Shown here: one piece after another, positions 22,406-30,857 of the stretch | How positions within the stretch are numbered: the first letter of the stretch is position 1 | Layout of the letters: each line of letters opens with the position of its first letter | From: Alphaproteobacteria bacterium | GTDB taxonomy: Bacteria; Pseudomonadota; Alphaproteobacteria; UBA828 | Direction of reading: 5' to 3' | Assembly (NCBI GenBank): GCA_965220745.1 | Contig: CBDCQT010000013.1 | Span: 32,001-96,000 of the forward strand | DNA: 64,000 nucleotides | Notes under the pieces: generated by a model | Database searches by the model: none | What the model saw: only the letters and a program-made list of their open reading frames with translations | What the model was told of the DNA's origin: nothing | Position numbers and translations under genes: made by a program

Positions 22406-24004
22406 CTAAGCCTTGTCGACGATGGTCGGCCAGGCTGCCTTGTTGCTCGCGCGGATGGCCTCGATCATCTTGTCCTCGCCCTTCTTCTTGATGATCTTCC
22501 GCCATTTCTTGGAGGCGTTCTTCATGGCCTCTTCGGGCGTGATGTCGCCGATCAGCGCACGCTGCAACTCCTCGTCCAGGCCGTTGTCGAATGCGGACTG
22601 GCCGGCGAAGTTGATCGTCGGTGCGGAGCGCTTGATGGTCTCCTGAATCACTTCCACGTGATCCTTGTGGTAGGTCTGCTGCACCAACGGATCGTCGAAG
22701 TTGGCCTTCTGGAACGGATCGAAGTAGCCGGCCGGATTGCCCGACATCCAGCTGAAGATGCGCGAGCAGCTTGCCCACTGGAGGAAGAGGTAGGCGGCCT
22801 CCGGATACTCGCTCTGCGCCGAGACCTCGGCATTAATGTTGAGGTAGAGCACGCTGCGGCGGATCAGGTCGTCTCCGAACCAGTTGCCCACCGGGAGGAA
22901 CGAGCCGAGCTTGCCCGACGCTGGCGTGGCGGGCGTTCCGTCGGCGTTCATCCGGTCGTTGAACTTCCGCAGGTTGGTATACGTGCTCATCATCACGCCG
23001 GTGCCTTGGGCCATGCTCCCGTAAGCCTCGGACCAAGTCCAGCTGAGCGCATCCTTGTTGGCCCACTGCCGGCTTCTCACGTGCTCCTCGGCGGTCTTGA
23101 TGCCGAGCTCCGTCTCGAGCAGCGGGTTTCCGTCGTCGTCGAAGTACTGGAAGTTGGGATTGTCCTGCCCCACGTAGCGCATGAAGTAGGTGCCCAGACC
23201 CCAGAACGGGCTGAACAGATTGACGGTCCCGTTCATGCCCTTCTCGAAGAAAAACTCGGCGATATTGTCAGCGTGCGCCCACGTCTGCGGCTTGCCCAGC
23301 TCCCAGCCGTAGCGGTCGCTGAACTCCTTCACGTTCTCGGGATCCTCGAACAGGTCCTTGCGGTAGACCCAAGTCTGGAAGTCCCCGTCGAAGGAAATCG
23401 TGTAATAGGAACCCGCATACTTGTAGAGAAGATCGGCGATCTCCGCAGTCGGCGCCCCGCGCTCGGGGTCGTTCCAGTCGGGCTTATACTGCTCGACGTA
23501 CGGGTCCAGATTGACGATGCCGCCGGTGGCGACGAGGTCGCCGACATTGCTCCAAAGCGCGGAGTAGATGTCGTAGACGCCGGCCTGGGTGGTGATGTCC
23601 TGGAGAACCTTGGTCACCATCTCCACTTCGCCAGAGCCGCTGAACTCGACCTCGATCCCGGTCTCTTCCTTCCAGACATCGTGGACAGTCGGCGCTCCCT
23701 CCGGGAAGGGCTTGGTGAACTGGCCGATCGCTCCCGAGAAGAGCAGGAAGCTCAACTTCTCAGGCGCCTTGCCCTCTGCCTTGAGCTTCTTGATGCCTTC
23801 GATGGCCCGCCCTTCGGGCATGTCCTCGTTGTACTGATAGCGCTCGGCCCCCGGGAAGCCCGTGGGGCCGCCGGTCATCCCAGGCGCCAAGCCCGCCGCC
23901 CGCGCGGGACGGATGTACTTGGGTGCGATGCCGATCGGCGAGGTGAGCACTAGGCCTGCGGCGCCGGTCTTCAGCGCCTGCCGTCGCGTGATCCTGATCC
24001 CCAT
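22406..24004 (-). CDS. Sugar-family ABC substrate-binding protein with Tat signal
   Basis: ITRRQALKTGAA twin-arginine signal, YRKDLF, ITPEEAM. Confidence 0.88.
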   Translation of the reverse strand: MGIRITRRQALKTGAAGLVLTSPIGIAPKYIRPARAAGLAPGMTGGPTGFPGAERYQYNEDMPEGRAIEGIKKLKAEGKAPEKLSFLLFSGAIGQFTKPFPEGAPTVHDVWKEETGIEVEFSGSGEVEMVTKVLQDITTQAGVYDIYSALWSNVGDLVATGGIVNLDPYVEQYKPDWNDPERGAPTAEIADLLYKYAGSYYTISFDGDFQTWVYRKDLFEDPENVKEFSDRYGWELGKPQTWAHADNIAEFFFEKGMNGTVNLFSPFWGLGTYFMRYVGQDNPNFQYFDDDGNPLLETELGIKTAEEHVRSRQWANKDALSWTWSEAYGSMAQGTGVMMSTYTNLRKFNDRMNADGTPATPASGKLGSFLPVGNWFGDDLIRRSVLYLNINAEVSAQSEYPEAAYLFLQWASCSRIFSWMSGNPAGYFDPFQKANFDDPLVQQTYHKDHVEVIQETIKRSAPTINFAGQSAFDNGLDEELQRALIGDITPEEAMKNASKKWRKIIKKKGEDKMIEAIRASNKAAWPTIVDKA

Positions 24005-24289
24005 TGAAGCCTCCCTTGCTCCTTCCGATTGAGCGGTCCGTGCCATCGAACCTGTTTGTCGCCGTGCCCTACTATATACCACGTGCGCGCGACGCCGTGC
24101 ATCCTCCAAGCGGCGCCGATATCGCCGCCTGTCGTCGTGCCAGCGGCCGCTGGGGCGCGACCGATGCTGGTAGCTCATGCCTGCCGATGGCGGTCTTCGA
24201 GCCAGATCGTTGGGCCTGTCGGACAGGCGATGCCGGAGGCATGATGGCGCTGAACAGCGACAATTGCCCCGAATCAACAACGCCCTGCG

Positions 24290-24988
24290 ATGAGCATTCG
24301 AGAGTCTGTCATTGCCGCCTTGCGCGCCGCCGCCGACCCGGCGAGAGCGCCGCAGCAACGGGCATACATGAAGTCCGACATGCCCTATTTCGGCTTGGGC
24401 GTGCCGCAATGCCGACGCATTGCCAGTGCCGTTTTCAGAGCGCACCCGCTACCCGACGCCCGCGCCTGGGAAGCGGCGATTCTCGAGCTCTGGCGCAACG
24501 CCGCCCACCGCGAGGAGCGCTACGCGGCGGTCGAGCTGCTGCTCTTCGGGCGCTATTCGCGCTGGCTGGAGCCGGTGAGAGTTCCGTTGATCGAGGAGTT
24601 GGTGGTCACCGGCGCCTGGTGGGACTACGTGGACGCGATTGCCGGCCGTGGCGTCGGGACCATGCTCGCCGCCCATCCCCGCCCGATGAAGGCCGTGCTG
24701 CGCGAATGGGCGAAGGACGACAACATCTGGAAGCGGCGGACCGCGATACTCGCCCAGCTCCGGGCCAAGCGGGCAACGGACACGAAGCTGCTGGCCGACG
24801 CGATTCGGCCGTCCATCGGCGCCTCGGAGTTCTTCCTGCGCAAGGGCATCGGCTGGGCGTTGCGCGAGTACTCCAAAACCGATCCGGCCTGGGTGCGCGC
24901 CTTCGTCAAAGCTCATCCCGAACTTTCGGACCTGAGCCGGCGCGAGGCGCTCAAGCACCTGGAGCGCACGAAAGCGGCCAATCGTTAG
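24290..24988 (+). CDS. DNA alkylation repair protein (AlkD-like)
   Basis: AYMKS, WWDYVD, NIWKRR, EFFLRKGIGWALREYSK. Confidence 0.92.
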   Translation: MSIRESVIAALRAAADPARAPQQRAYMKSDMPYFGLGVPQCRRIASAVFRAHPLPDARAWEAAILELWRNAAHREERYAAVELLLFGRYSRWLEPVRVPLIEELVVTGAWWDYVDAIAGRGVGTMLAAHPRPMKAVLREWAKDDNIWKRRTAILAQLRAKRATDTKLLADAIRPSIGASEFFLRKGIGWALREYSKTDPAWVRAFVKAHPELSDLSRREALKHLERTKAANR

Positions 24989-25028: not shown

Positions 25029-25082
25029 TTGACGATTTGAGTCCCGAAGAGTAGAGTAAGCGCATAGATGCTTATGCGTTTA
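25029..25082 (+). promoter_or_regulatory. sigma70 promoter and inverted-repeat operator of the RHH-PIN operon
   Basis: TTGACG-N17-TAGAGT (25029-25057); inverted repeat TAAGCGCATA-N6-TATGCGTTTA (25057-25082). Confidence 0.65.
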
Positions 25083-25099
25083 TGCGCGGGAGCGTGACC

Positions 25100-25336
25100 A
25101 TGACCCGATGGAATCTCTCCATCTCGGAGGAGACAGACCGGACGGTTCGCATGTTTCTTGCCCGCAACGGCGGCAAGAAGGGCGATCTATCCCGATTCGT
25201 CGACGACGCTGTGCGCCGCCGCGTTTTCGATCTCACCGTCAGTCAGGTCAAGGAGCGTAATGCCGGATTGGACCAACGGGAGATTCTCAGCGTGATCGAC
25301 GATGAGGTAAGCGCGGCGCGTGCGGGTCGTTCTTGA
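25100..25336 (+). CDS. Ribbon-helix-helix protein, putative antitoxin
   Basis: RWNLSISEETD...GGKKGDLSRFVDDAV; overlaps the PIN gene. Confidence 0.85.
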   Translation: MTRWNLSISEETDRTVRMFLARNGGKKGDLSRFVDDAVRRRVFDLTVSQVKERNAGLDQREILSVIDDEVSAARAGRS

Positions 25337-25748
25337 CACCAACATCTTGATCGGCGCCCTGATCACCAAGGGCACGCCACCGGACAGCTTGTATCAGGCA
25401 TGGCTTCGCGGGGAGATCGAACTTGTGACATCCGCCGCGCAGATCCGCGAGCTGGCCGATGTCCTCGCCAGAGAGCGTCTCCAAAAGTTTCTCGACGCCG
25501 ATGAGGCTGCGGCCATAGTCGAGAACATCGGTACCCGCGCTGTCATCCTCGATGAGCTCCCAAGCGTGTCTCACTCTCCCGATCCCATGGATAACCAGAT
25601 CATGGCGACCGCTATCGCTGGAGGCGTCGACCTGATCGTCTCCGGAGACAAGAAGCACATGCTCGCGCTCCGGGAGGTCGATGGCATTCCCATTGTGACC
25701 GCTCGCAAAGCTCTGGAGCTGCTGCGTCAAGGCCAGGGCAGCACGTGA
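25320..25748 (+). CDS. PIN-domain putative toxin
   Basis: MRVVLDTNIL, DPMDN and IVSGD acidic motifs. Confidence 0.9.
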   Translation: MRVVLDTNILIGALITKGTPPDSLYQAWLRGEIELVTSAAQIRELADVLARERLQKFLDADEAAAIVENIGTRAVILDELPSVSHSPDPMDNQIMATAIAGGVDLIVSGDKKHMLALREVDGIPIVTARKALELLRQGQGST

Positions 25749-25769: not shown

Positions 25770-27017
25770 TCACGAGCGGGCCGAGTCCGCGCCGATGTGA
25801 GTGGCCAAATGGTCGGTGAGATCGCGGGCATCGTCGGCGGTGCCGTGAATGAAGCTCGACTTGCGGCGGCGCAGGAAGTTGAGGCCGATGCGGTAGACGC
25901 CCGGCGCCTCCGTCACCACGCCGCCGTCATGGCGCAGCCGGCCCTTGCGGTCGAAGACCGGAAGATCGACCCAGGAGTGATCGGGCTCGTATCCGGTCGC
26001 CCAGATCACCGTCCGTATCCCTTCGCGGGCGAGATCGAGGGTGAGCGGCGGCGAGTCCTCCACCCGCGTCGGCTCGAAGCGATGCGGCGGCTCGAATTCC
26101 TCGTCGAGCCCGTTCTCGTCGACCCACTCGTCGATGGTGTCGAGCAGCCGGCCCTGCTTCAGGTCTGCCAGGTTGCACTTGTTGGGGAGCGAGCCCGAGA
26201 ACTGCGCCTTGCCGTCCGAGAACCCGGCCAGCAGGCCCACCAGGCGCACCCCCTGATCGGTGAGGTCGTTGAGATTGAGCGTGGAGCGCTCCGGCGTGCC
26301 CACGAGCTGCGGTGAGGGCACCCGGCGCGCGCGCACGATGTCGTCCACCTCGTCGTAGCGCTCGTCGTGCAGCCCGGTGCGATCCATCCACCACAGGATG
26401 TCCTTGCCGCGATAGGTGCGCGGCATGCGCACGTGCTCGCCCACCGCGATCGTCACGGGGCGGCCCGAGCGGTGCACCTCGTCCGCAATCTGGACACCGG
26501 TGGCGGACGCGCCGACCACCAGCACGCCGCCCTCCGGCAAGTCCGAGGGCCGCGTGTAGTCCATCGGCGTCACGGACTCGATGGTGCTGGGGAGCGCCGC
26601 CCCGACGGCCGGAATCTTCGGCACGTTGAAGCCGCCGGAGGCGAGCACCGCGCATGCGCAGCGCCAGACGCCCCGGTCGGTCGCTACCTCGTAGCCGTCG
26701 CCGTTCTTGGTCAGGGATTCGACGGTGGTGCCGGTCTCGAGCGGCGGGTCCACGAGCCGGGCGTAGCGTTCGATGAACGCCACCACCTCGGCCATGGTCA
26801 TGAAGCCGTCGGGATCGTCGCCGTCGTAGGCGAGGCCGGGCACGTGCGTCTGCCAGTTGGGCGTCAGCAGGCGGAGAGACTCCCAGCGCTCCGTCCGCCA
26901 CGTGTGAGCCACCTCGCCGCGCTCGATCACCACGTGATCGATGCCGCGCGCGGCGAGGCAATGGCTCACGGCGAGGCCGGCATGACCGGCCCCTACCACG
27001 ACGGTCGTCGTGTACAC
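25770..27017 (-). CDS. FAD/NAD(P)-dependent oxidoreductase, flavin monooxygenase-like
   Basis: VVGAGHAG, W...RWESL.LLTPNW, second Rossmann motif VVGASATG, IWATGY; GTG start assumed. Confidence 0.88.
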   Translation of the reverse strand: MYTTTVVVGAGHAGLAVSHCLAARGIDHVVIERGEVAHTWRTERWESLRLLTPNWQTHVPGLAYDGDDPDGFMTMAEVVAFIERYARLVDPPLETGTTVESLTKNGDGYEVATDRGVWRCACAVLASGGFNVPKIPAVGAALPSTIESVTPMDYTRPSDLPEGGVLVVGASATGVQIADEVHRSGRPVTIAVGEHVRMPRTYRGKDILWWMDRTGLHDERYDEVDDIVRARRVPSPQLVGTPERSTLNLNDLTDQGVRLVGLLAGFSDGKAQFSGSLPNKCNLADLKQGRLLDTIDEWVDENGLDEEFEPPHRFEPTRVEDSPPLTLDLAREGIRTVIWATGYEPDHSWVDLPVFDRKGRLRHDGGVVTEAPGVYRIGLNFLRRRKSSFIHGTADDARDLTDHLATHIGADSARS

Positions 27018-27102
27018 GGCGTCGCTAGAGCACGTTCCGAGCGTGCGGGATCGGCCCTGGTTGCCGAGCGGCGCCTGTCGCACATGCATTGCCGCTCGAA
27101 AA

Positions 27103-27213
27103 CCCCCACCTCACCCCGGCCCTCTCCGCCCCCAGGGGCGGAGAGGGAGAAGAGGCGGCGCCGCTTGCGTCCCCCCTCCGCCCTTTGGGGGGAGGGGGAC
27201 AGGGGGAGGTGGG
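27103..27213. repeat. REP/MITE-like palindromic element, copy 1
   Basis: Terminal IR CCCACCTC/GAGGTGGG around two GC hairpins, e.g. CCCTCTCCGCCCC-CA-GGGGCGGAGAGGG; homologous to 57115-57208. Confidence 0.75.
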
Positions 27214-27255
27214 AGCCGTTCGGGCCGCGGTAATCCGGTACGGTCGCATCATGCT

Positions 27256-27819
27256 CTAGTTCACCTCGACGGTGACGTTGGTCGGGTTGGTCAGGATATC
27301 GTAGACCGCCGAGCGCTTCTGAGACTGGGCGACCAGCGCCGCGATCTCGTCGGGTGTGGCGTCGGCGTCGATATCGTAGGTGACCTTGACATTGTTGAAC
27401 CCGTTCCGGATTTCGGGATCGGCGCCCAGGATTCCCGCGATGTCCATGTCGCCTTCGACCGTGGCCTTGACCGAGCGAAGCTGGATCTCCCGCACCTGTG
27501 CCACCGCGGCGACGCCGGCGGTCAGGCAGCTCGCCAGACCCGTGAGCACGATCTCCACCGGCGTGGCCGCGTTGTCCTCCGCCGCGAACACCAGGGGATG
27601 ATCGGACTCGAACGAGTAGCTCGCCTTGTGGTCGTTCTCCTGGCCGAGGCCGAAATAGCCCTCCACCCGTGTCTTGCTGTGCGTGCCGTGGAGCCACTCG
27701 TTGGTGACGCGCCACGTGAACTGGCCGGCTTCGGGCTGGTCGCCCAGGATATTGCGGGCACCGAGCAGGTGCTCGACGTTGACGCCGTTAAGGCCGGGAG
27801 TTTCGCTGCTGTCGGACAT
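27256..27819 (-). CDS. OsmC/Ohr-like protein with a single Cys
   Basis: NGVNV, DHP..F...D...TPVE.VL.GLASCL, EGDMD..GILG; RBS AAGGAG. Confidence 0.88.
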   Translation of the reverse strand: MSDSSETPGLNGVNVEHLLGARNILGDQPEAGQFTWRVTNEWLHGTHSKTRVEGYFGLGQENDHKASYSFESDHPLVFAAEDNAATPVEIVLTGLASCLTAGVAAVAQVREIQLRSVKATVEGDMDIAGILGADPEIRNGFNNVKVTYDIDADATPDEIAALVAQSQKRSAVYDILTNPTNVTVEVN

Positions 27820-27946
27820 GGATCTTCTCCTTGTGGGCATGGTTGTCGGGCTGTGACTCCGCCCCGGTCGGTGGCGATGCCAGAGGCCTGGAGGACCGCG
27901 CGGTCTCCATCGCTCTCACCCGGTGGGATCGGCTACGAGCGGTAGC

Positions 27947-28012
27947 CTAGGTACAGACGCGGCAGGACGCGGCCCCCGGAGGGGCGAATGGCTGGGCGCA
28001 CAGAGTCATCAT
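27947..28012 (-). CDS. Putative Met/Cys-rich leader peptide (21 aa, MMTLCAQPFAPPGAASCRVCT)
   Basis: SD GAGAGGAG 9 nt before tandem ATGs; lies between the riboswitch and osmC. Confidence 0.45.
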   Translation of the reverse strand: MMTLCAQPFAPPGAASCRVCT

Positions 28013-28079
28013 CTGGCGGTACTCCTCTCGTCTCCTACGCGCTCTACGAGCGCCGAGAGCGGAGCTCCGCCTCCGGCTA

Positions 28080-28160
28080 ACTCATCGATCAGGCATTGGC
28101 ACCGCTCTTGGCGGTTGCCGCGGCTTCGAAGGGCCTGTCCCTCCACCGCTCTGGATGAGC
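28080..28160 (-). ncRNA. SAM-I (S-box)-type riboswitch aptamer lacking P4
   Basis: Minus strand CTCATC-CAGAG-CGGTGGAGGGACAGGCCCTTCGAAGCCG-CGGCAACC-GCCAAGAGC-GGTGCCAAT-GCCTG-ATC-GATGAG: P1, AGA J1/2, kink-turn P2, GCAACC/GGTGC P3, and L2 CAGG pairing with CCTG. Confidence 0.85.
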
Positions 28161-28175
28161 GCGTCCTGTGCGCGC

Positions 28176-28204
28176 ATGAAACACAAACCGGTGGGCGTGG
28201 TCAA
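28176..28204 (-). promoter_or_regulatory. Putative sigma70 promoter of the riboswitch leader
   Basis: TTGACC-N17-TTTCAT with an extended TG, ending about 15 nt before P1. Confidence 0.55.
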
Positions 28205-28244
28205 CAAAATGTCGCGGCCTCGACGAGCCGACGCGCAGGCCGTC

Positions 28245-29450
28245 TCAGGCCCCGGCCTTGGCCACCGCGTGTTGTGGCGCGCCGCCACTGCTCGGCAGCC
28301 AGAAGGCGATGATGGCGACCAGCGCCGCCGAGCCGCCGAGTCCGACGAAGAGCCAGAGGAAGCCGCCGGAAACACCGTGGAGGCCCGCGACCAGCGGCGC
28401 CGCCACCGCGCTCGCGCCGAGGCCGAGCAAGAACTTCACGCCGAAGATCCGCGCCCGCCAGCTCTCCTTCGTGTAACGCGTGACCAGCGCGTCCTGGATC
28501 GGAATCTCGCCCACCACCACCATCATCATCGCGAGCGCCACGATGATCAGGCCGTGGCCAGCGAGCACACCGGCAGCGGCGATCAGCGGCGCCTGGGCGA
28601 ACAGCACCGCGATCCAGACTGGCTTCGCCGGGTAGCGGTCGATCAGCCAGCCGACCCCGATCTGGGCGAAGGCGGCGATGGCGATGACGACCGAGACCAG
28701 CCCGCCGACTCCGAGGGCACTGTCGGTGATCCCGGTGAGCCCTTCGTCGAACAGCTTGGGGAGCGCGATGGTCGTGGTCTGGAACGTGAGTCCCGTGAGC
28801 GTCGTCGCGATGCCGATCACCAGCACCAGCCGCAGCAGCGTGCCCGAGGGCTGGCCGCCCCACCCCCGGCCCAGGGAGGGTCGGGAGGAGGTCTCCTCGC
28901 TGTTGCGCCACTGGCGGCAGACCGCGATGAACCAGAGCCCGATGACCAGCGAGACCGCGCCCGGCACGATGAATGCCGCACGCCAACTGATCGCATCGCT
29001 CAGCGACGCGGCCACGATCGCCGCCGCCGCGAGCCCGAAGTTCCCGGCGACTCCGTTGATCCCGAGCAGCTTGCCGACCTTCTCCCGCCCCTCCACCAGC
29101 ATGGCGATGCCGACCGGGTGATAGATCGAGGCGAAGAGGCCGATCAGCGTGAGCCCGACCGCAAGCTCGAACGGCGTGCGCGCGAAGCCGGTGAGGATGG
29201 ACGCGGCCCCGATGCCGACGAAGAAGATCGCGAGCATCGCGGGCCTGCTCCACCGGTCCCCCAACCAGCCGGCCGGCAGCGTGCCCGCGGCGAAGGCGAT
29301 GAAGCCGGGCACGGCGAGCGAGAGCAGCTCGCCGTAGGAGCGGTCGAACACCCCTTCGAGGGTGAGCACCACCGTCGGGTAGAGCAGCAGGAACAGGTGG
29401 TCGAGCCCGTGCCCGACGTTGATGAAGAGTATGCGGGAGCGGTCCGACAT
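28245..29450 (-). CDS. MFS transporter
   Basis: GWLGDRWSR motif A, YHPVG, about 12 hydrophobic segments. Confidence 0.92.
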   Translation of the reverse strand: MSDRSRILFINVGHGLDHLFLLLYPTVVLTLEGVFDRSYGELLSLAVPGFIAFAAGTLPAGWLGDRWSRPAMLAIFFVGIGAASILTGFARTPFELAVGLTLIGLFASIYHPVGIAMLVEGREKVGKLLGINGVAGNFGLAAAAIVAASLSDAISWRAAFIVPGAVSLVIGLWFIAVCRQWRNSEETSSRPSLGRGWGGQPSGTLLRLVLVIGIATTLTGLTFQTTTIALPKLFDEGLTGITDSALGVGGLVSVVIAIAAFAQIGVGWLIDRYPAKPVWIAVLFAQAPLIAAAGVLAGHGLIIVALAMMMVVVGEIPIQDALVTRYTKESWRARIFGVKFLLGLGASAVAAPLVAGLHGVSGGFLWLFVGLGGSAALVAIIAFWLPSSGGAPQHAVAKAGA

Positions 29451-29561: not shown

Positions 29562-29635
29562 TGGAGCGGGTGAAGGGAATCGAACCCTCGTCGTAAGCTT
29601 GGGAAGCTTCTGCTCTACCATTGAGCTACACCCGC
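29562..29635 (-). tRNA. tRNA-Gly (anticodon CCC)
   Basis: GCGGGTGTAGCTCAATGGTAGAGCAGAAGCTTCCCAAGCTTACGACGAGGGTTCGATTCCCTTCACCCGCTCCA: cloverleaf, TTCGA T-loop, encoded CCA. Confidence 0.97.
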
Positions 29636-29709: not shown

Positions 29710-30318
29710 TCATCGGCGGCTGCGCGATGTCTTGCCCTTGTCGACGATGCGTCCCTCCTTCAGGGCGAGAGCCTGCTCGATCAACTCCTCCTTCGAGTGC
29801 AGGAGGTCGCCCCTGGGCAGCTTCACGGAGTCCAGCAGCCGGTCCATCGCGTCGTCGTGGGGCTCGAGCGCGCCGTCGGCGAGAATGTGGGCGACGGCGA
29901 CGCCGCGCCCGGCGAGGCTGCGGCCGACCAGCAGCGTCCGGTGGCAGTCGAGAGGCTCCTTCTCCGCGCACATCAGCGCGATGCGCTCGTGCCCCGCTGC
30001 CTCCACCACCCGATCGATCCCCTCGCGATAGAGAGACGTCCGCGCCAGGCGATCGTAGCGCACGCGCCCGTCCTCGTAGCACGAGGGGTCTTCGGGGCGC
30101 CCGCCGAGCGCGTGCCCCATGAAGCGGTACGCGATGCCGTGCGTCTGCAGCGCGGCGTCGAGGGACTTGCGGTTGAACTGCGGGTTGAAGCGGCTGTAGG
30201 GCGTCGATCGAACGTCGGCGAGTGTCGTGACGTCGTGCTGCTGCAGGAGCGAGACGAAAGTCTCCAGCGGGTGGTTGGAATGCCCGACGGTCAGCACCAA
30301 TGCTTCCGCCTCCGTCAT
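29710..30318 (-). CDS. DUF488 family protein
   Basis: TVGHSN, DVRSTPYSR, LGGRP, LMCAE..P..CHR. Confidence 0.9.
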   Translation of the reverse strand: MTEAEALVLTVGHSNHPLETFVSLLQQHDVTTLADVRSTPYSRFNPQFNRKSLDAALQTHGIAYRFMGHALGGRPEDPSCYEDGRVRYDRLARTSLYREGIDRVVEAAGHERIALMCAEKEPLDCHRTLLVGRSLAGRGVAVAHILADGALEPHDDAMDRLLDSVKLPRGDLLHSKEELIEQALALKEGRIVDKGKTSRSRR

Positions 30319-30431
30319 GGGGGCGCTCCACTGTCGGCCCGAGCGCCGTCCAGCTCCGGGCGATGGCGTTTCGCGTGTGCATGTGGTGAGGTGCGCCCAG
30401 CAACGCAACGCACGGCTGGAGGAGGGGAACG

Positions 30432-30857
30432 ATGACACAGGACGCCACGGCGGAAGGCTTGGAAGCCGCCTTCCACGCATGGGCGCGCGGGCTCAACGAG
30501 GGCGACCTCGACGCCTTCTGGAGCGCCTTCGACGACGGCGCCGAGATTCTCGACGAGGATTACCCTTGGCGGATGACGCTGGAGGAGTTCAAGGACCATA
30601 TCGACTTTCACGCCGGCGGCACCGGGCTGTGGGAGCACTTCAAGTGGATCCCGCGGGAGCTGAACGTCAGGGTCTGGGGCACCACGGGACATGTCAGCGG
30701 CTTCTCGACCTTTCGCGGCAAGCCGCGCGACGCGGGCTTCCGGCAGCGCTTCATGGGCTTCACCCAGACCTGGTACCACATGAACGGCAAGTGGCTTCAG
30801 GTCTGCTGGCATCAGAGCCCGCTGCTCGGTCGCATCCACGGCGCCTCGCCAAGTTAA
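30432..30857 (+). CDS. NTF2/SnoaL-like (DUF4440-type) protein
   Basis: W..GLNEGDLDA start and NGKWLQVCWHQS end; RBS GGAGG. Confidence 0.8.
   Translation: MTQDATAEGLEAAFHAWARGLNEGDLDAFWSAFDDGAEILDEDYPWRMTLEEFKDHIDFHAGGTGLWEHFKWIPRELNVRVWGTTGHVSGFSTFRGKPRDAGFRQRFMGFTQTWYHMNGKWLQVCWHQSPLLGRIHGASPS

Follow-up and report, generated by a model that had tools for sequence, protein, structure and literature searches.

A SAM-I aptamer without P4 heading the uORF-containing leader of an osmC-FMO gene pair in an alphaproteobacterium

Genes and transcript coverage of the locus

The window analyzed here is a 64,000-nucleotide stretch from an Alphaproteobacteria bacterium (GenBank assembly GCA_965220745.1, contig CBDCQT010000013.1), and all features described below lie on its minus strand. 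Read along this strand, a SAM-I aptamer is followed by a leader with a short upstream open reading frame (uORF), by an osmC-like gene and, after a dispersed repeat, by an FMO-like flavoprotein gene. The osmC-like gene (27256-27819) encodes a protein of 187 aa that was assigned through PF02566 (63.7 bits) and scored 60.2 bits with NF041052, the OsmC-related (seleno)protein model, under that model's cut-off of 95. Its single conserved Cys lies in the motif GLA.CLTAG, and Ser occupies the usual position of the second Cys. The flavoprotein gene (25770-27017) was assigned through Pyr_redox_3 (79.4 bits); its product reached 356 bits with TIGR04046 (MSMEG_0569 family), under the cut-off of 498, and scored far under cut-off with both ArsO (103.6) and YpdA (38.7). 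One Cys of this protein, C305, is conserved in 80 of 81 rows. Comparison with solved structures gave no function: the matches to the flavoprotein were small bacterial FMOs and covered its N-terminal half, and the structure closest to the OsmC-like protein was 2opl, a hypothetical protein of the same kind (E 1.3e-37). Identity across the 80 loci nearest to the window was 60-98% for OsmC and 63-97% for FMO.

The repeat between the two genes (27018-27255) is palindromic, about 240 nt long, and was delimited by comparison with locus L020, which lacks it and has an osmC-FMO gap of 10 nt. It has 46 matches in its own genome, a count that includes the repeat itself and reverse-strand matches of the palindrome, and its fold z-score is -5.5. 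The longest ORF of the FMO-like gene begins within the repeat, at 27089; the GTG start at 27017 was inferred from the L020 comparison and is thus supported by homology. We consider it very probable that the aptamer controls osmC-FMO, with the reservation that the intervening repeat makes co-regulation of FMO less certain in this genome.

The initial annotation placed a promoter, TTGACC-N17-TTTCAT (28176-28204), just upstream of the aptamer. Both hexamers are present (TTGACC at 28204-28199 and TTTCAT at 28181-28176), with a spacing of 17 nt, but no site in this promoter-like region passed a sigma-70 consensus scan. All 16 genus sequences compared have a TTGAC box in their upstream flank, and, judged from the sequence, a promoter at this position is plausible. 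Metatranscriptome contigs extend piecewise over aptamer, uORF and the beginning of osmC (27879-28161 in X17; 27776-27926 and 27925-28095 in X16; 27729-27933 in X15). Strand, ends and a single transcript are not readable from such contigs, and their uncovered parts and depth differences carry no evidential weight.

Identity of the aptamer

In an Rfam cmscan of the 64-kb window, the SAM-I model RF00162 matched positions 28079-28161 with 68.9 bits, as compared to a gathering score of 44.4 (E 5.3e-14). The match is 83 nt long and covers model positions 1-108, and every strongly conserved position of the SAM-I consensus is matched in the alignment. P1 consists of CTCATC (28159-28154) and GATGAG (28086-28081), J1/2 reads AGA, GGAGGGACAGGCCC lies within a k-turn-like P2 and GCAACC...GGTGC within P3, and the L2 sequence CAGG stands opposite CCTG in J3/4 as its putative pseudoknot partner. 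All of these motifs had been recognized, at the same place and on the minus strand, in the initial annotation. Its further claim, that P4 is absent, agrees with the RF00162 alignment, in which the P4 columns are deleted: 17 model columns are gapped there, and AUC alone joins the pseudoknot strand to the 3' strand of P1.

With P4 deleted, the window aptamer lacks the complete four-way junction (P1-P4) of SAM-I. However, the Rfam SAM-I alignment accepts P4-less members, according to the available part of one report (PMC12714719), so the missing P4 does not exclude SAM-I membership. The same text describes some Actinomycetota sequences in that alignment as having a very short P4 or none, and as still able to respond to SAM. 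The window aptamer joins these P4-less SAM-I RNAs already described for Actinomycetota, as far as the accessible text goes, and it is the regulon link that is the interesting part. P1, the P2 internal-loop motif, P3, the core junctions and the L2/J3-4 partners are shared with them, as is the family. In contrast, the host here is an alphaproteobacterium, a conserved uORF platform replaces the terminator, and the genes are osmC-like and FMO-like.

An RF00162 search of the 4.8-Mb genome found the window aptamer as its only SAM-I match. RF01725 (SAM-I/IV) had no match at E<=10 in the whole genome, and a SAM-I/IV reading was dropped for this reason; the covariance-model check suggested earlier came out positive for SAM-I and negative for SAM-I/IV. 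Clan competition retained RF00162 over the other clan models, and it was through this competition only that RF00634 (SAM-IV) was compared in this genome. SAM-IV and SAM-I/IV belong to the same clan, have a SAM-I-like binding core and carry no P4 inside the junction; the window RNA, in contrast, scores as SAM-I and keeps a k-turn-type P2 and the SAM-I pseudoknot partners. A SAM-SAH search gave no match in this genome, and the control genomes were equally without a match. The presence of the same 83-nt aptamer in the genus, together with aptamers upstream of osmC across phyla, places the SAM-I match far beyond chance. We regard the element as almost certainly a true SAM-I aptamer.

The core of the aptamer (J1/2 AGA, GGCAACC and GGUGCCAAU around P3, and the P2 internal-loop motif) is invariant in 38/38 aligned leaders. 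The CAGG and CCUG segments of L2 and J3/4 are complementary and invariant in the same 38 leaders and, being without variation, yield no covariation. Variation is confined to the P3 tip and loop (the latter 5-7 nt), the internal loop of P2 and single substitutions scattered over a few rows. Near-invariant aptamer columns across 38 distinct sequences from several phyla, next to flanks that vary freely, argue against a decaying relic that was brought in with a transferred operon and regulates nothing. Such a relic would fit the foreign origin discussed below, and an aptamer-less subclade in Acidimicrobiia shows that loss occurs, but we find this reading scarcely credible.

The genes regulated here are not classical Met genes, and loss of P4 lowers SAM affinity, as stated in the available text of PMC12714719 (citing Heppell 2011). 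Both points would suit a P4-less aptamer with shifted specificity, sensing SAH or another sulfonium or adenosyl compound for osmC-FMO. This is very unlikely in our view: the strongly conserved SAM-I core positions are all in place, the same aptamer type heads metY and metA operons, and designed as well as natural P4-less aptamers respond to SAM in probing, in what could be seen of that report (PMC12714719).

The leader and its proposed switch

The whole leader is about 340 nt long, and several of its segments have alternative partners. Segment alpha (ACGCGCUC, 28157-28164), which ends on the first three bases of the P1 5' strand, is the proposed 5' half of an anti-sequestor. According to constraint folds, a switching segment (28054-28077) can form either hairpin A, with a GCCG/CGGC base and a GCGG/CCGC tip, or the sequestor strands GGCGG, GCUCC (anti-SD) and UCUCG. 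Next come beta (GCGCUC, 28053-28048) and gamma (GAGCGCGU, 28044-28037), which are separated by a 3-nt loop and together span 28037-28053; gamma can take beta (at the sequestor tip) or alpha as its partner. The uORF Shine-Dalgarno (SD) region and the 3' strand of the sequestor, CGAGA-GGAGU-A-CCGCC, lie at 28015-28030 and were assigned from folding and compensatory changes.

We propose that binding of SAM closes P1 (CUCAUC/GAUGAG), upon which gamma would pair with the neighboring beta. The long helix around this hairpin (GGCGG/CCGCC, anti-SD GCUCC/GGAGU, UCUCG/CGAGA) would then bury the SD of the uORF. Without SAM, alpha would pair with gamma, the anti-SD strand would refold as hairpin A, and the uORF would be translated. 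Expression of osmC-FMO, about 130 nt downstream, would depend on this translation, possibly because it protects the transcript from Rho or opens downstream structure; this is the least supported step. On this model the leader would be a SAM-OFF translational switch. Folding is not proof of it, and our confidence in the details of SD masking is evenly balanced.

The aligned leaders bear on these helices in different ways. The sequestor is 90.6% paired, as compared to at most 51% when its 3' partners are slid, and 35 of its cells are changed on both sides, as compared to 14.7 +/- 2.8 in shuffles, none of 500 of which reached this number. The covarying pairs are located in the GGCGG/CCGCC and anti-SD/SD helices, GCUCC/GGAGU being replaced by UUUCC/GGAGA in Acidimicrobiia, and pair counts give changes on both sides for sequestor helices 5 and 6. 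In the MAFFT alignment, 22-26% of the cells of the sequestor helices are unpaired. Hairpin A cells are paired at 89.5-91.9%, those of beta-gamma at 96.5% and those of alpha-gamma at 99.3%, and the alpha-gamma helix is the one chosen by an unconstrained RNAalifold consensus. Alpha is invariant or nearly so in 38/38 leaders; gamma shows no variation in its first seven bases (GAGCGCG), and its eighth base is conserved in at least 90% of the 38 sequences. Because alpha and gamma do not vary, there is no covariation for their helix. Gamma is also retained in leaders that have neither aptamer nor alpha, so its conservation has an additional cause beyond pairing with alpha.

Enforcing P1 gave the SD of the window a pairing probability of 0.98, and enforcing alpha-gamma one of 0.33. 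The corresponding medians over leaders were 0.79 and 0.48, and the SD was more paired under enforced P1 in 38 of 43 distinct leaders, the reverse or equality being seen in 5. The alpha-gamma state was more stable by a median of 5.3 kcal/mol over these 43 leaders, before ligand energy; the minimum-energy fold of the window differs from this state. When more 3' context was included, the window SD was 0.93-0.99 paired in the free, the P1-enforced and the P1-3'-strand-blocked ensembles alike. Since the SD is paired in every window ensemble with the longer 3' sequence, folding thermodynamics alone show no switch, and a thermodynamic switch for the window itself is unsupported. Pairing of the P1 5' strand with the uORF start, which free folding gave for L002, L003 and L009, was discarded as incidental because Acidimicrobiia do not retain the complementary GGAUGA. 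In two studies, RNA contigs stop at 28161 and continue into adapter sequence; should 28161 be the true 5' end, alpha would be shortened to 5 nt, which is a point against an alpha-gamma switch.

SAM-IV and SAM-I/IV carry their P4 on the 3' side of P1 and have a second pseudoknot to the P3 loop. The stretch after P1 might itself be a part of the aptamer, with ACGCG/CGCGU as an outer clamp in the bound state and hairpin A as a relocated P4, as in these two classes. Alpha and gamma would then be as invariant in 38/38 leaders as core aptamer positions are, the hairpin directly 3' of P1 would be kept, and gamma would persist even after aptamer loss, all of which is observed. However, the short and variable P3 loop offers no evident partner for a second pseudoknot, the SD region offers the strands of hairpin A another partner, which is conserved and covaries, and both the RF01725 search and the clan competition spoke for SAM-I. 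We therefore consider this arrangement improbable and retain hairpin A as one state of the proposed switch.

The uORF (27947-28012, from the ORF listing) consists of 21 codons and a TAG stop (MMTLCAQPFAPPGAASCRVCT), is Cys-rich and has its SD 9 nt upstream. An SD and a start codon (ATG or GTG) occupy the uORF place in 52 of 54 aptamer-bearing loci, where the pattern itself required both and chance is estimated at about one third. The uORF peptides are not conserved between loci, yet they are Cys-rich near the stop. Cys codons number 101 of 1478 in the uORF frame, as compared to 63 and 13 in the other frames, and Met codons 35, as compared to 5 and 15, in counts whose rows are mutually related and include a few that are mis-parsed (L031, L036, L075, L088+). 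The remainder of the leader (27820-27946), described from sequence and genus comparison, contains the osmC SD, AAGGAGAAG, and local hairpins, GGCUAC/GUAGCC being an example. A special global fold between uORF and osmC was dropped, since this part is no stabler than its shuffles (z 0.33), and neither in the window leader nor in leaders lacking the aptamer did a further known RNA family reach the gathering score. A scan of 27700-28400 found no intrinsic terminator. An intrinsic-terminator mechanism was dropped accordingly, and the alternative hairpins ending in a terminator that mark a leader-peptide attenuator are likewise absent from this interval.

Masking of an SD upon SAM binding, as proposed here, is common to two systems known from the available parts of their reports: the Xanthomonas SAM-I riboswitch, which is mainly translational and has a second input (PMC7270179), and the SAM-II riboswitch of Sinorhizobium metA, in which the start codon controlled by the masked SD lies at a distance of 74 nt (PMC9373788). 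Those systems have canonical met genes and a standard aptamer, whereas the masked SD here would belong to a separate short ORF. The actinobacterial cys/cbs leader peptides, as described in the accessible text of PMC1262725, have in common with the present leader a short uORF, Cys codons near its stop and no terminator hairpin. They have no riboswitch in front, in contrast to the uORF described here, the initiation of which would be under an aptamer-linked predicted sequestor.

The regulated SD and the osmC start codon are about 190 nt apart and no intrinsic terminator separates them, which raises another possibility. SAM binding might mainly set the elongation or fate of the transcript, through Rho termination, RNA stability or a leader sRNA, with SD masking being secondary or the trigger for Rho. 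SAM-II leaders of Sinorhizobium give rise to sRNAs and exert their effect at a distance (PMC9373788), and the actinobacterial Cys-codon leader peptides have been proposed to work with Rho (PMC1262725), in the parts of these reports that were available. In X15, X16 and X19, summed contig depth is also greater over the aptamer than further downstream, though contig depth cannot rank gene parts. However, the compensatory changes in the anti-SD/SD helix argue that uORF initiation is at least the first controlled step, and we judge it unlikely that transcript fate is the main output. The two explanations, transcript fate and SD masking, are largely compatible.

Distribution of the cassette and its link to methionine and sulfur metabolism

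Of 20 other genomes of the genus, 15 carry the aptamer in almost invariant form, and it was found in none of 20 relatives searched outside the genus. When homologous osmC-FMO pairs were searched, as had been suggested, the same aptamer was present upstream of 38 of 73 evaluable pairs from Alphaproteobacteria, Gammaproteobacteria and Acidimicrobiia, and the other 35 were without it. At all 16 representative loci from other phyla, the aptamers upstream of osmC scored 64-74 bits with Rfam and measured 81-84 nt, and this length also held for 19/19 P4-less matches checked in other phyla. SAM-I had been called unusual in alphaproteobacteria, which is borne out by a single occurrence among 150 other alphaproteobacterial genomes sampled, a canonical 132-nt SAM-I before metX; metZ of the host itself is preceded by SAM-II. 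A riboswitch of any kind was found at one of 20 alphaproteobacterial osmC-homologue loci scanned. It was of the same P4-less SAM-I type, and other SAM riboswitch classes were absent from these 20 loci.

In a tree of 81 FMO rows, a clade of aptamer-bearing Proteobacteria (21 rows, support 99) has as its sister group a clade of 17 Acidimicrobiia/Spongiisociaceae rows (support 100), and both are nested in a mostly actinomycetotal tree; it was a quick search with SH-aLRT support, a midpoint root and no bootstrap. An aptamer-less Acidimicrobiia subclade is nested among the aptamer-bearing ones. This topology is in keeping with a cassette that was transferred as a whole from Actinomycetota. The aptamer, the uORF and the genes move as a unit, a cassette shared by Acidimicrobiia and scattered Alpha- and Gammaproteobacteria, and horizontal transfer is the most likely route by which it reached this alphaproteobacterial genus. 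A riboswitch would thereby have moved between phyla, with expression platform and cargo genes, into a host that uses another SAM class. Taken as a whole, a working P4-less SAM-I riboswitch heading a uORF leader and osmC-FMO, transferred as a cassette, switching by SD masking and belonging to a methionine/sulfur regulon, is an explanation that we find rather probable. The conserved uORF behind the aptamer could make it a compact natural case for riboswitch control at a distance.

SAM-I characteristically sits before methionine or sulfur genes. The window genes are osmC-like and FMO-like, and this link is provided by the metA and metY leaders of Acidimicrobiia. In seven loci metA follows FMO, the Acidimicrobiia having osmC-FMO-metA under the same leader type. 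A second P4-less aptamer of the same leader design precedes osmC2-metY in five Acidimicrobiia loci and metY directly in one (L096). In Nakamurella (L082), SAM-IV (94.5 bits), metY and, further along the same strand, osmC and FMO follow one another. The occurrence of metA and metY in the same riboswitch-led Acidimicrobiia operons strengthens the link of osmC-FMO to sulfur/SAM homeostasis that the initial annotation had drawn, and points to osmC-FMO as output genes of a methionine/sulfur regulon.

Literature searches found no published description of this leader or regulon. A SAM riboswitch before osmC does have a published precedent in SAR11 (PMC5069961). In 'Candidatus Pelagibacter ubique' HTCC1062, according to the available parts of two reports (PMC5069961; PMC2704228), a translation-repressing SAM-V precedes osmC, which is followed by the FAD-dependent oxidoreductase gene ordL; sulfur limitation there induces no gene more strongly than osmC (PMC5069961). 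The HTCC1062 locus shares with the window a SAM riboswitch before osmC and a flavin oxidoreductase gene. It differs in that its riboswitch is of another class with an unrelated fold and ordL is DAO-type, not FMO-type. Our 150-genome sample of the class contained one sub-threshold SAM-V match (39.6 bits vs a cut-off of 41), at a locus without osmC, metY or metA alongside.

The agreement across lineages (SAM-I, SAM-IV, published SAM-V and adjacency to metA or metY) suggests a conserved OsmC/FMO pair in methionine or sulfur metabolism. A more far-reaching idea, which we advance tentatively, is that the leader is a two-input sulfur sensor, in which SAM-I gates a leader peptide whose Cys (and Met) codons near its stop report charging of sulfur amino-acid tRNAs, and that the 1-Cys OsmC and the FMO-fold flavoprotein form an unrecognised and widely transferred module for making methionine by direct sulfhydrylation. 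If so, the downstream genes would be on only when both signals are low, and OsmC and FMO would serve MetY by delivering sulfur or through thiol/persulfide redox. Such a module would explain why three unrelated SAM classes (SAM-I, SAM-IV and SAM-V) were recruited to osmC, and why osmC-FMO lies beside metA and metY in separate lineages. It would also explain why osmC is the gene most strongly induced under sulfur limitation in SAR11, and would turn that puzzling induction into a testable hypothesis of a missing step around MetY.

The SAM-I aptamer and its distribution

In the initial annotation, a P4-less SAM-I aptamer was described on the minus strand upstream of an osmC-like gene, and all of its motifs were found where they had been placed. 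P1 is formed by CUCAUC (28159-28154) and GAUGAG (28086-28081), with AGA as J1/2, the P2 motif GGAGGGACAGGCCC, the P3 core GCAACC...GGUGC and the pseudoknot partners CAGG opposite CCUG; AUC alone links to the 3' strand of P1, i.e. P4 is absent. The covariance-model comparison proposed there was positive for SAM-I and negative for SAM-I/IV: RF00162 (SAM-I) matched 28079-28161 on the minus strand with 68.9 bits (E 5.3e-14, model positions 1-108, P4 columns deleted; gathering score 44.4 bits), and the SAM-I/IV model gave no match genome-wide at E<=10. Besides SAM-I, a permissive Rfam scan of 27700-28400 yielded nothing better than E 0.37, and this aptamer is the only SAM-I site in the 4.8-Mb genome. 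It is a member of the known SAM-I family, of which the P4-less form is already in print.

A SAM-I match of identical length (83 nt) was present in 15 of 20 additional congeneric genomes, the five negative genomes being 62%, 67%, 92%, 100% and 100% complete, and in none of 20 relatives searched outside the genus. We next turned to flavoprotein relatives in genome contigs, taking the best 80 of 431; these were mostly MAGs titled Alphaproteobacteria, Rhodospirillales, Gammaproteobacteria and Acidimicrobiia, with Candidatus Spongiisociaceae, Acidobacteriota and Thermoleophilia as further titles. Among these best 80, an osmC homologue lay directly 5' of the flavoprotein gene in 79, the other locus having no upstream sequence. 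The same aptamer recurred, as the initial annotation had suggested looking for, ~300 nt before osmC in 38 of the 73 loci that could be judged (seven had too little upstream sequence). The other 35 had no SAM-clan Rfam match upstream of osmC, save a SAM-IV far upstream in the Nakamurella locus L082. Sixteen representative aptamers matched RF00162 over 81-84 nt with 64.2-74.5 bits. When 38 distinct leaders were aligned, variation inside the aptamer was confined to the tip and loop of P3, the internal loop of P2 and isolated substitutions in a few of the sequences; the 10 nt 5' of the aptamer varied freely. One aptamer, in locus L075 (3217-3380), has GACAACC for GGCAACC (64.9 bits), and the uORF there is only an AUG and an immediate UGA.

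Folding of the leader and the proposed role of the uORF

Downstream of P1 on the minus strand, sequence and alignment delineate a switching segment (GCCG-GA-GGCGG-A-GCUCC-GC-UCUCG, 28077-28054), beta (GCGCUC, 28053-28048, then a 3-nt loop), gamma (GAGCGCGU, 28044-28037) and the strand with the uORF Shine-Dalgarno (SD) sequence (CGAGA-GGAGU-A-CCGCC, 28030-28015). The uORF runs from AUG at 28012 to TAG at 27947 (21 codons); the start of osmC, preceded by a AAGGAGAAG of its own, is at 27819. On the 5' side, alpha (ACGCGCUC, 28164-28157) is the exact complement of gamma and shares the first three bases of P1. No intrinsic terminator was found in the leader.

When P1 was enforced, as in the proposed SAM-bound state, every leader formed a long helix enclosing the beta-gamma hairpin, with the pairs GGCGG/CCGCC, anti-SD GCUCC/GGAGU (UUUCC/GGAGA in Acidimicrobiia) and UCUCG/CGAGA. 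In the MAFFT alignment, 90.6% of cells in this sequestor were paired, a figure that did not exceed 50.9% once the 3' partners had been slid, and 35 cells were altered on both sides, as compared to 14.7 +/- 2.8 in shuffles (0 of 500 reached 35). Covariation was seen at three pairs of GGCGG/CCGCC and at two pairs of anti-SD/SD; the 22-26% unpaired cells in these helices come chiefly from rows that MAFFT aligned poorly. The alternative structure, comprising alpha-gamma and a local hairpin of the switching segment, was 96.8% paired, its alpha-gamma helix 99.3% paired with zero variation, and unconstrained RNAalifold chose alpha-gamma as the closing helix.

In 38 of 43 distinct leaders, enforcing P1 left the SD more paired than enforcing alpha-gamma did. 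Over all 43, median SD pairing was 0.79 and 0.48, respectively, with values above 0.8 in the P1 state in 21 leaders and below 0.5 in the alpha-gamma state in 24. The alpha-gamma state was lower by a median of 5.3 kcal/mol, ligand and tertiary energy excluded. On these results, we read the leader RNA as a predicted SAM-OFF switch on uORF initiation, although the folding results fall short of proof. With 17 nt of extra 3' context, the SD of the window leader was 0.93-0.99 paired whatever the state of P1, and gamma persists even where the aptamer has been lost. In addition, metatranscriptome contigs from two studies (X15 and X17) stop exactly at 28161 and continue into sequencing adapter. This is a weak hint that an RNA begins two bases beyond P1, at a transcription start or as a stable fragment after trimming, in which case alpha would be shortened. 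The promoter proposed upstream is plausible: TTGACC and TTTCAT with 17-nt spacing exist at 28204-28176, but they fail the sigma-70 scan rule. A TTGAC box is present in the upstream flank of 16/16 genus sequences.

Under the SAM-OFF reading, uORF translation would act on osmC, ~130 nt downstream, with protection from Rho or structural opening as the candidate routes. Partial precedents are the Sinorhizobium metA SAM-II, which acts at a distance (PMC9373788), and the Cys-codon leader peptides of Actinobacteria (PMC1262725). The uORF peptide is not conserved across lineages and much of its coding sequence doubles as RNA helix, such as GCUCCCGGGUGG/CCACCCGGGAGC in Acidimicrobiia, in which C-G has been replaced by U-A and U-A by C-G. 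Cys codons bunch near the stop in every version, and Met codons too in one type (...SCRVCT and ...SCCLCT in the genus, ...MCLCSRV.. in Acidimicrobiia, ...RRCQMS in a second leader type). Because the rows are related and four are mis-parsed, the apparent enrichment for Cys (101 of 1478 codons in frame versus 63 and 13 in the other frames) and Met (35 versus 5 and 15) is a lead rather than a result.

Aptamer-less osmC leaders (L042-L050, L054, L056, L060-L065) retain an AGCGCG(G)UAGG box, SD and uORF, and carry a long covarying stem of GCUCYCGGGYGG and its complement that matched no Rfam family. They may represent a separate regulatory RNA or attenuator, older than or outlasting the aptamer.

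Metabolic partners of the osmC-flavoprotein pair

The window OsmC-like protein (187 aa, PF02566) has a single conserved Cys, with Ser at the usual second Cys position. The flavoprotein has an FMO fold (Pyr_redox_3) and one conserved Cys, and is related to the MSMEG_0569 family with a score under the family cut-off. In seven Acidimicrobiia loci, metA lies directly 3' of the flavoprotein gene (NF003776, 369 bits; cut-off 358). A second, divergent P4-less SAM-I of the same platform design was found on the minus strand, some 900 nt 5' of the osmC aptamer, in L071, L077, L078, L083, L088, L096 and L097. It precedes an OsmC paralogue and metY (TIGR01326, 625.5 bits versus 495) in five loci and metY alone in L096; the L088 sequence stops short of the downstream gene. 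The leader that it heads has a hairpin of its own, the GAGCGCGU box, GAAAGGAGAA as SD and a uORF that starts with GUG (VEQ..RS...RRC.MS). In L082, one strand carries SAM-IV, metY, an additional ORF, then osmC and the flavoprotein gene. Four other loci, one with an Acidimicrobiales title and the remaining three with Thermoleophilia or Gaiella titles, have metY divergent from osmC and no recognised riboswitch. In SAR11, a SAM-V riboswitch is reported before osmC, with the flavoprotein gene ordL following, and no transcript is induced more strongly than osmC by sulfur limitation (PMC5069961, PMC2704228). These operon partners, the SAM-IV and the SAR11 arrangement place the pair in methionine and sulfur metabolism; we would guess at a role beside MetY in sulfur delivery or in the redox chemistry of thiols or persulfides.

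Full-text literature searches returned only the SAR11 work for OsmC with a SAM riboswitch, and no description of the aptamer-uORF leader. New here are how widely SAM riboswitches are linked to the osmC-flavoprotein pair, the alphaproteobacterial host, and evidence for joint movement of aptamer, uORF platform and genes in a single cassette. Separately, c-di-AMP riboswitches (RF00379, 73-85 bits) occur a few kb from the pair in L060, L061, L063, L064 and L072, from Acidobacteriota and Acidimicrobiia.

Origin and local setting of the cassette

The alphaproteobacterial setting, thought unusual for SAM-I at the outset, proved so: in an even sample, one of 150 other alphaproteobacterial genomes carried SAM-I, in the canonical 132-nt form before metX. 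The host has a SAM-II (71.5 bits) preceding an O-succinylhomoserine sulfhydrylase gene (TIGR01325, 557.5 bits; cut-off 510). Close osmC orthologues (at least 61% identity) occurred in 12 of 400 other sampled alphaproteobacteria, one of the 12 with a P4-less SAM-I. In a quick maximum-likelihood flavoprotein tree (81 rows), the window fell inside an aptamer-bearing Alpha/Gamma clade (21 rows, SH-aLRT 99). Its sister group, with a support of 87, is a clade of 17 Acidimicrobiia/Spongiisociaceae rows (support 100); Actinomycetota predominate around both, and aptamer-less alphaproteobacterial copies lie elsewhere. Together with the concentration of P4-less SAM-I in Actinomycetota, reported in PMC12714719, these observations fit a probable transfer of the whole cassette from Actinomycetota, with the root of the tree and the direction of transfer putative. 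Locus L024, on a contig titled uncultured Bifidobacteriaceae MAG, has a cassette 87% identical to the window flavoprotein and places with Rhodospirillales rows, probably through an error of binning or labelling.

In the host genome, osmC is separated from the flavoprotein gene by a GC-rich palindromic element of ~240 nt (27018-27255; fold z-score -5.5, far better than shuffles) with 46 matches in its own genome, counting itself and reverse-strand palindrome matches. It resembles dispersed repeats of the REP or MITE kind, and is absent at the corresponding place in L020, where the intergenic gap is 10 nt. By homology, the flavoprotein gene starts at GTG 27017 rather than ATG 27089. Downstream, a plus-strand RHH (PF16762) and PIN (PF13470) pair at 25082-25748, likely a toxin-antitoxin module, is convergent to the flavoprotein gene, which is therefore the last of the operon. 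Upstream on the minus strand are an MFS transporter gene (28245-29450), a tRNA gene (29565-29635, 69.3 bits) just before it and, beyond, a DUF488 protein gene (29710-30480). A Cis90 sRNA match (RF02648, 82.2 bits; 22672-22872, plus strand) lies antisense within a minus-strand ORF for a 679-aa solute-binding protein (22406-24445).
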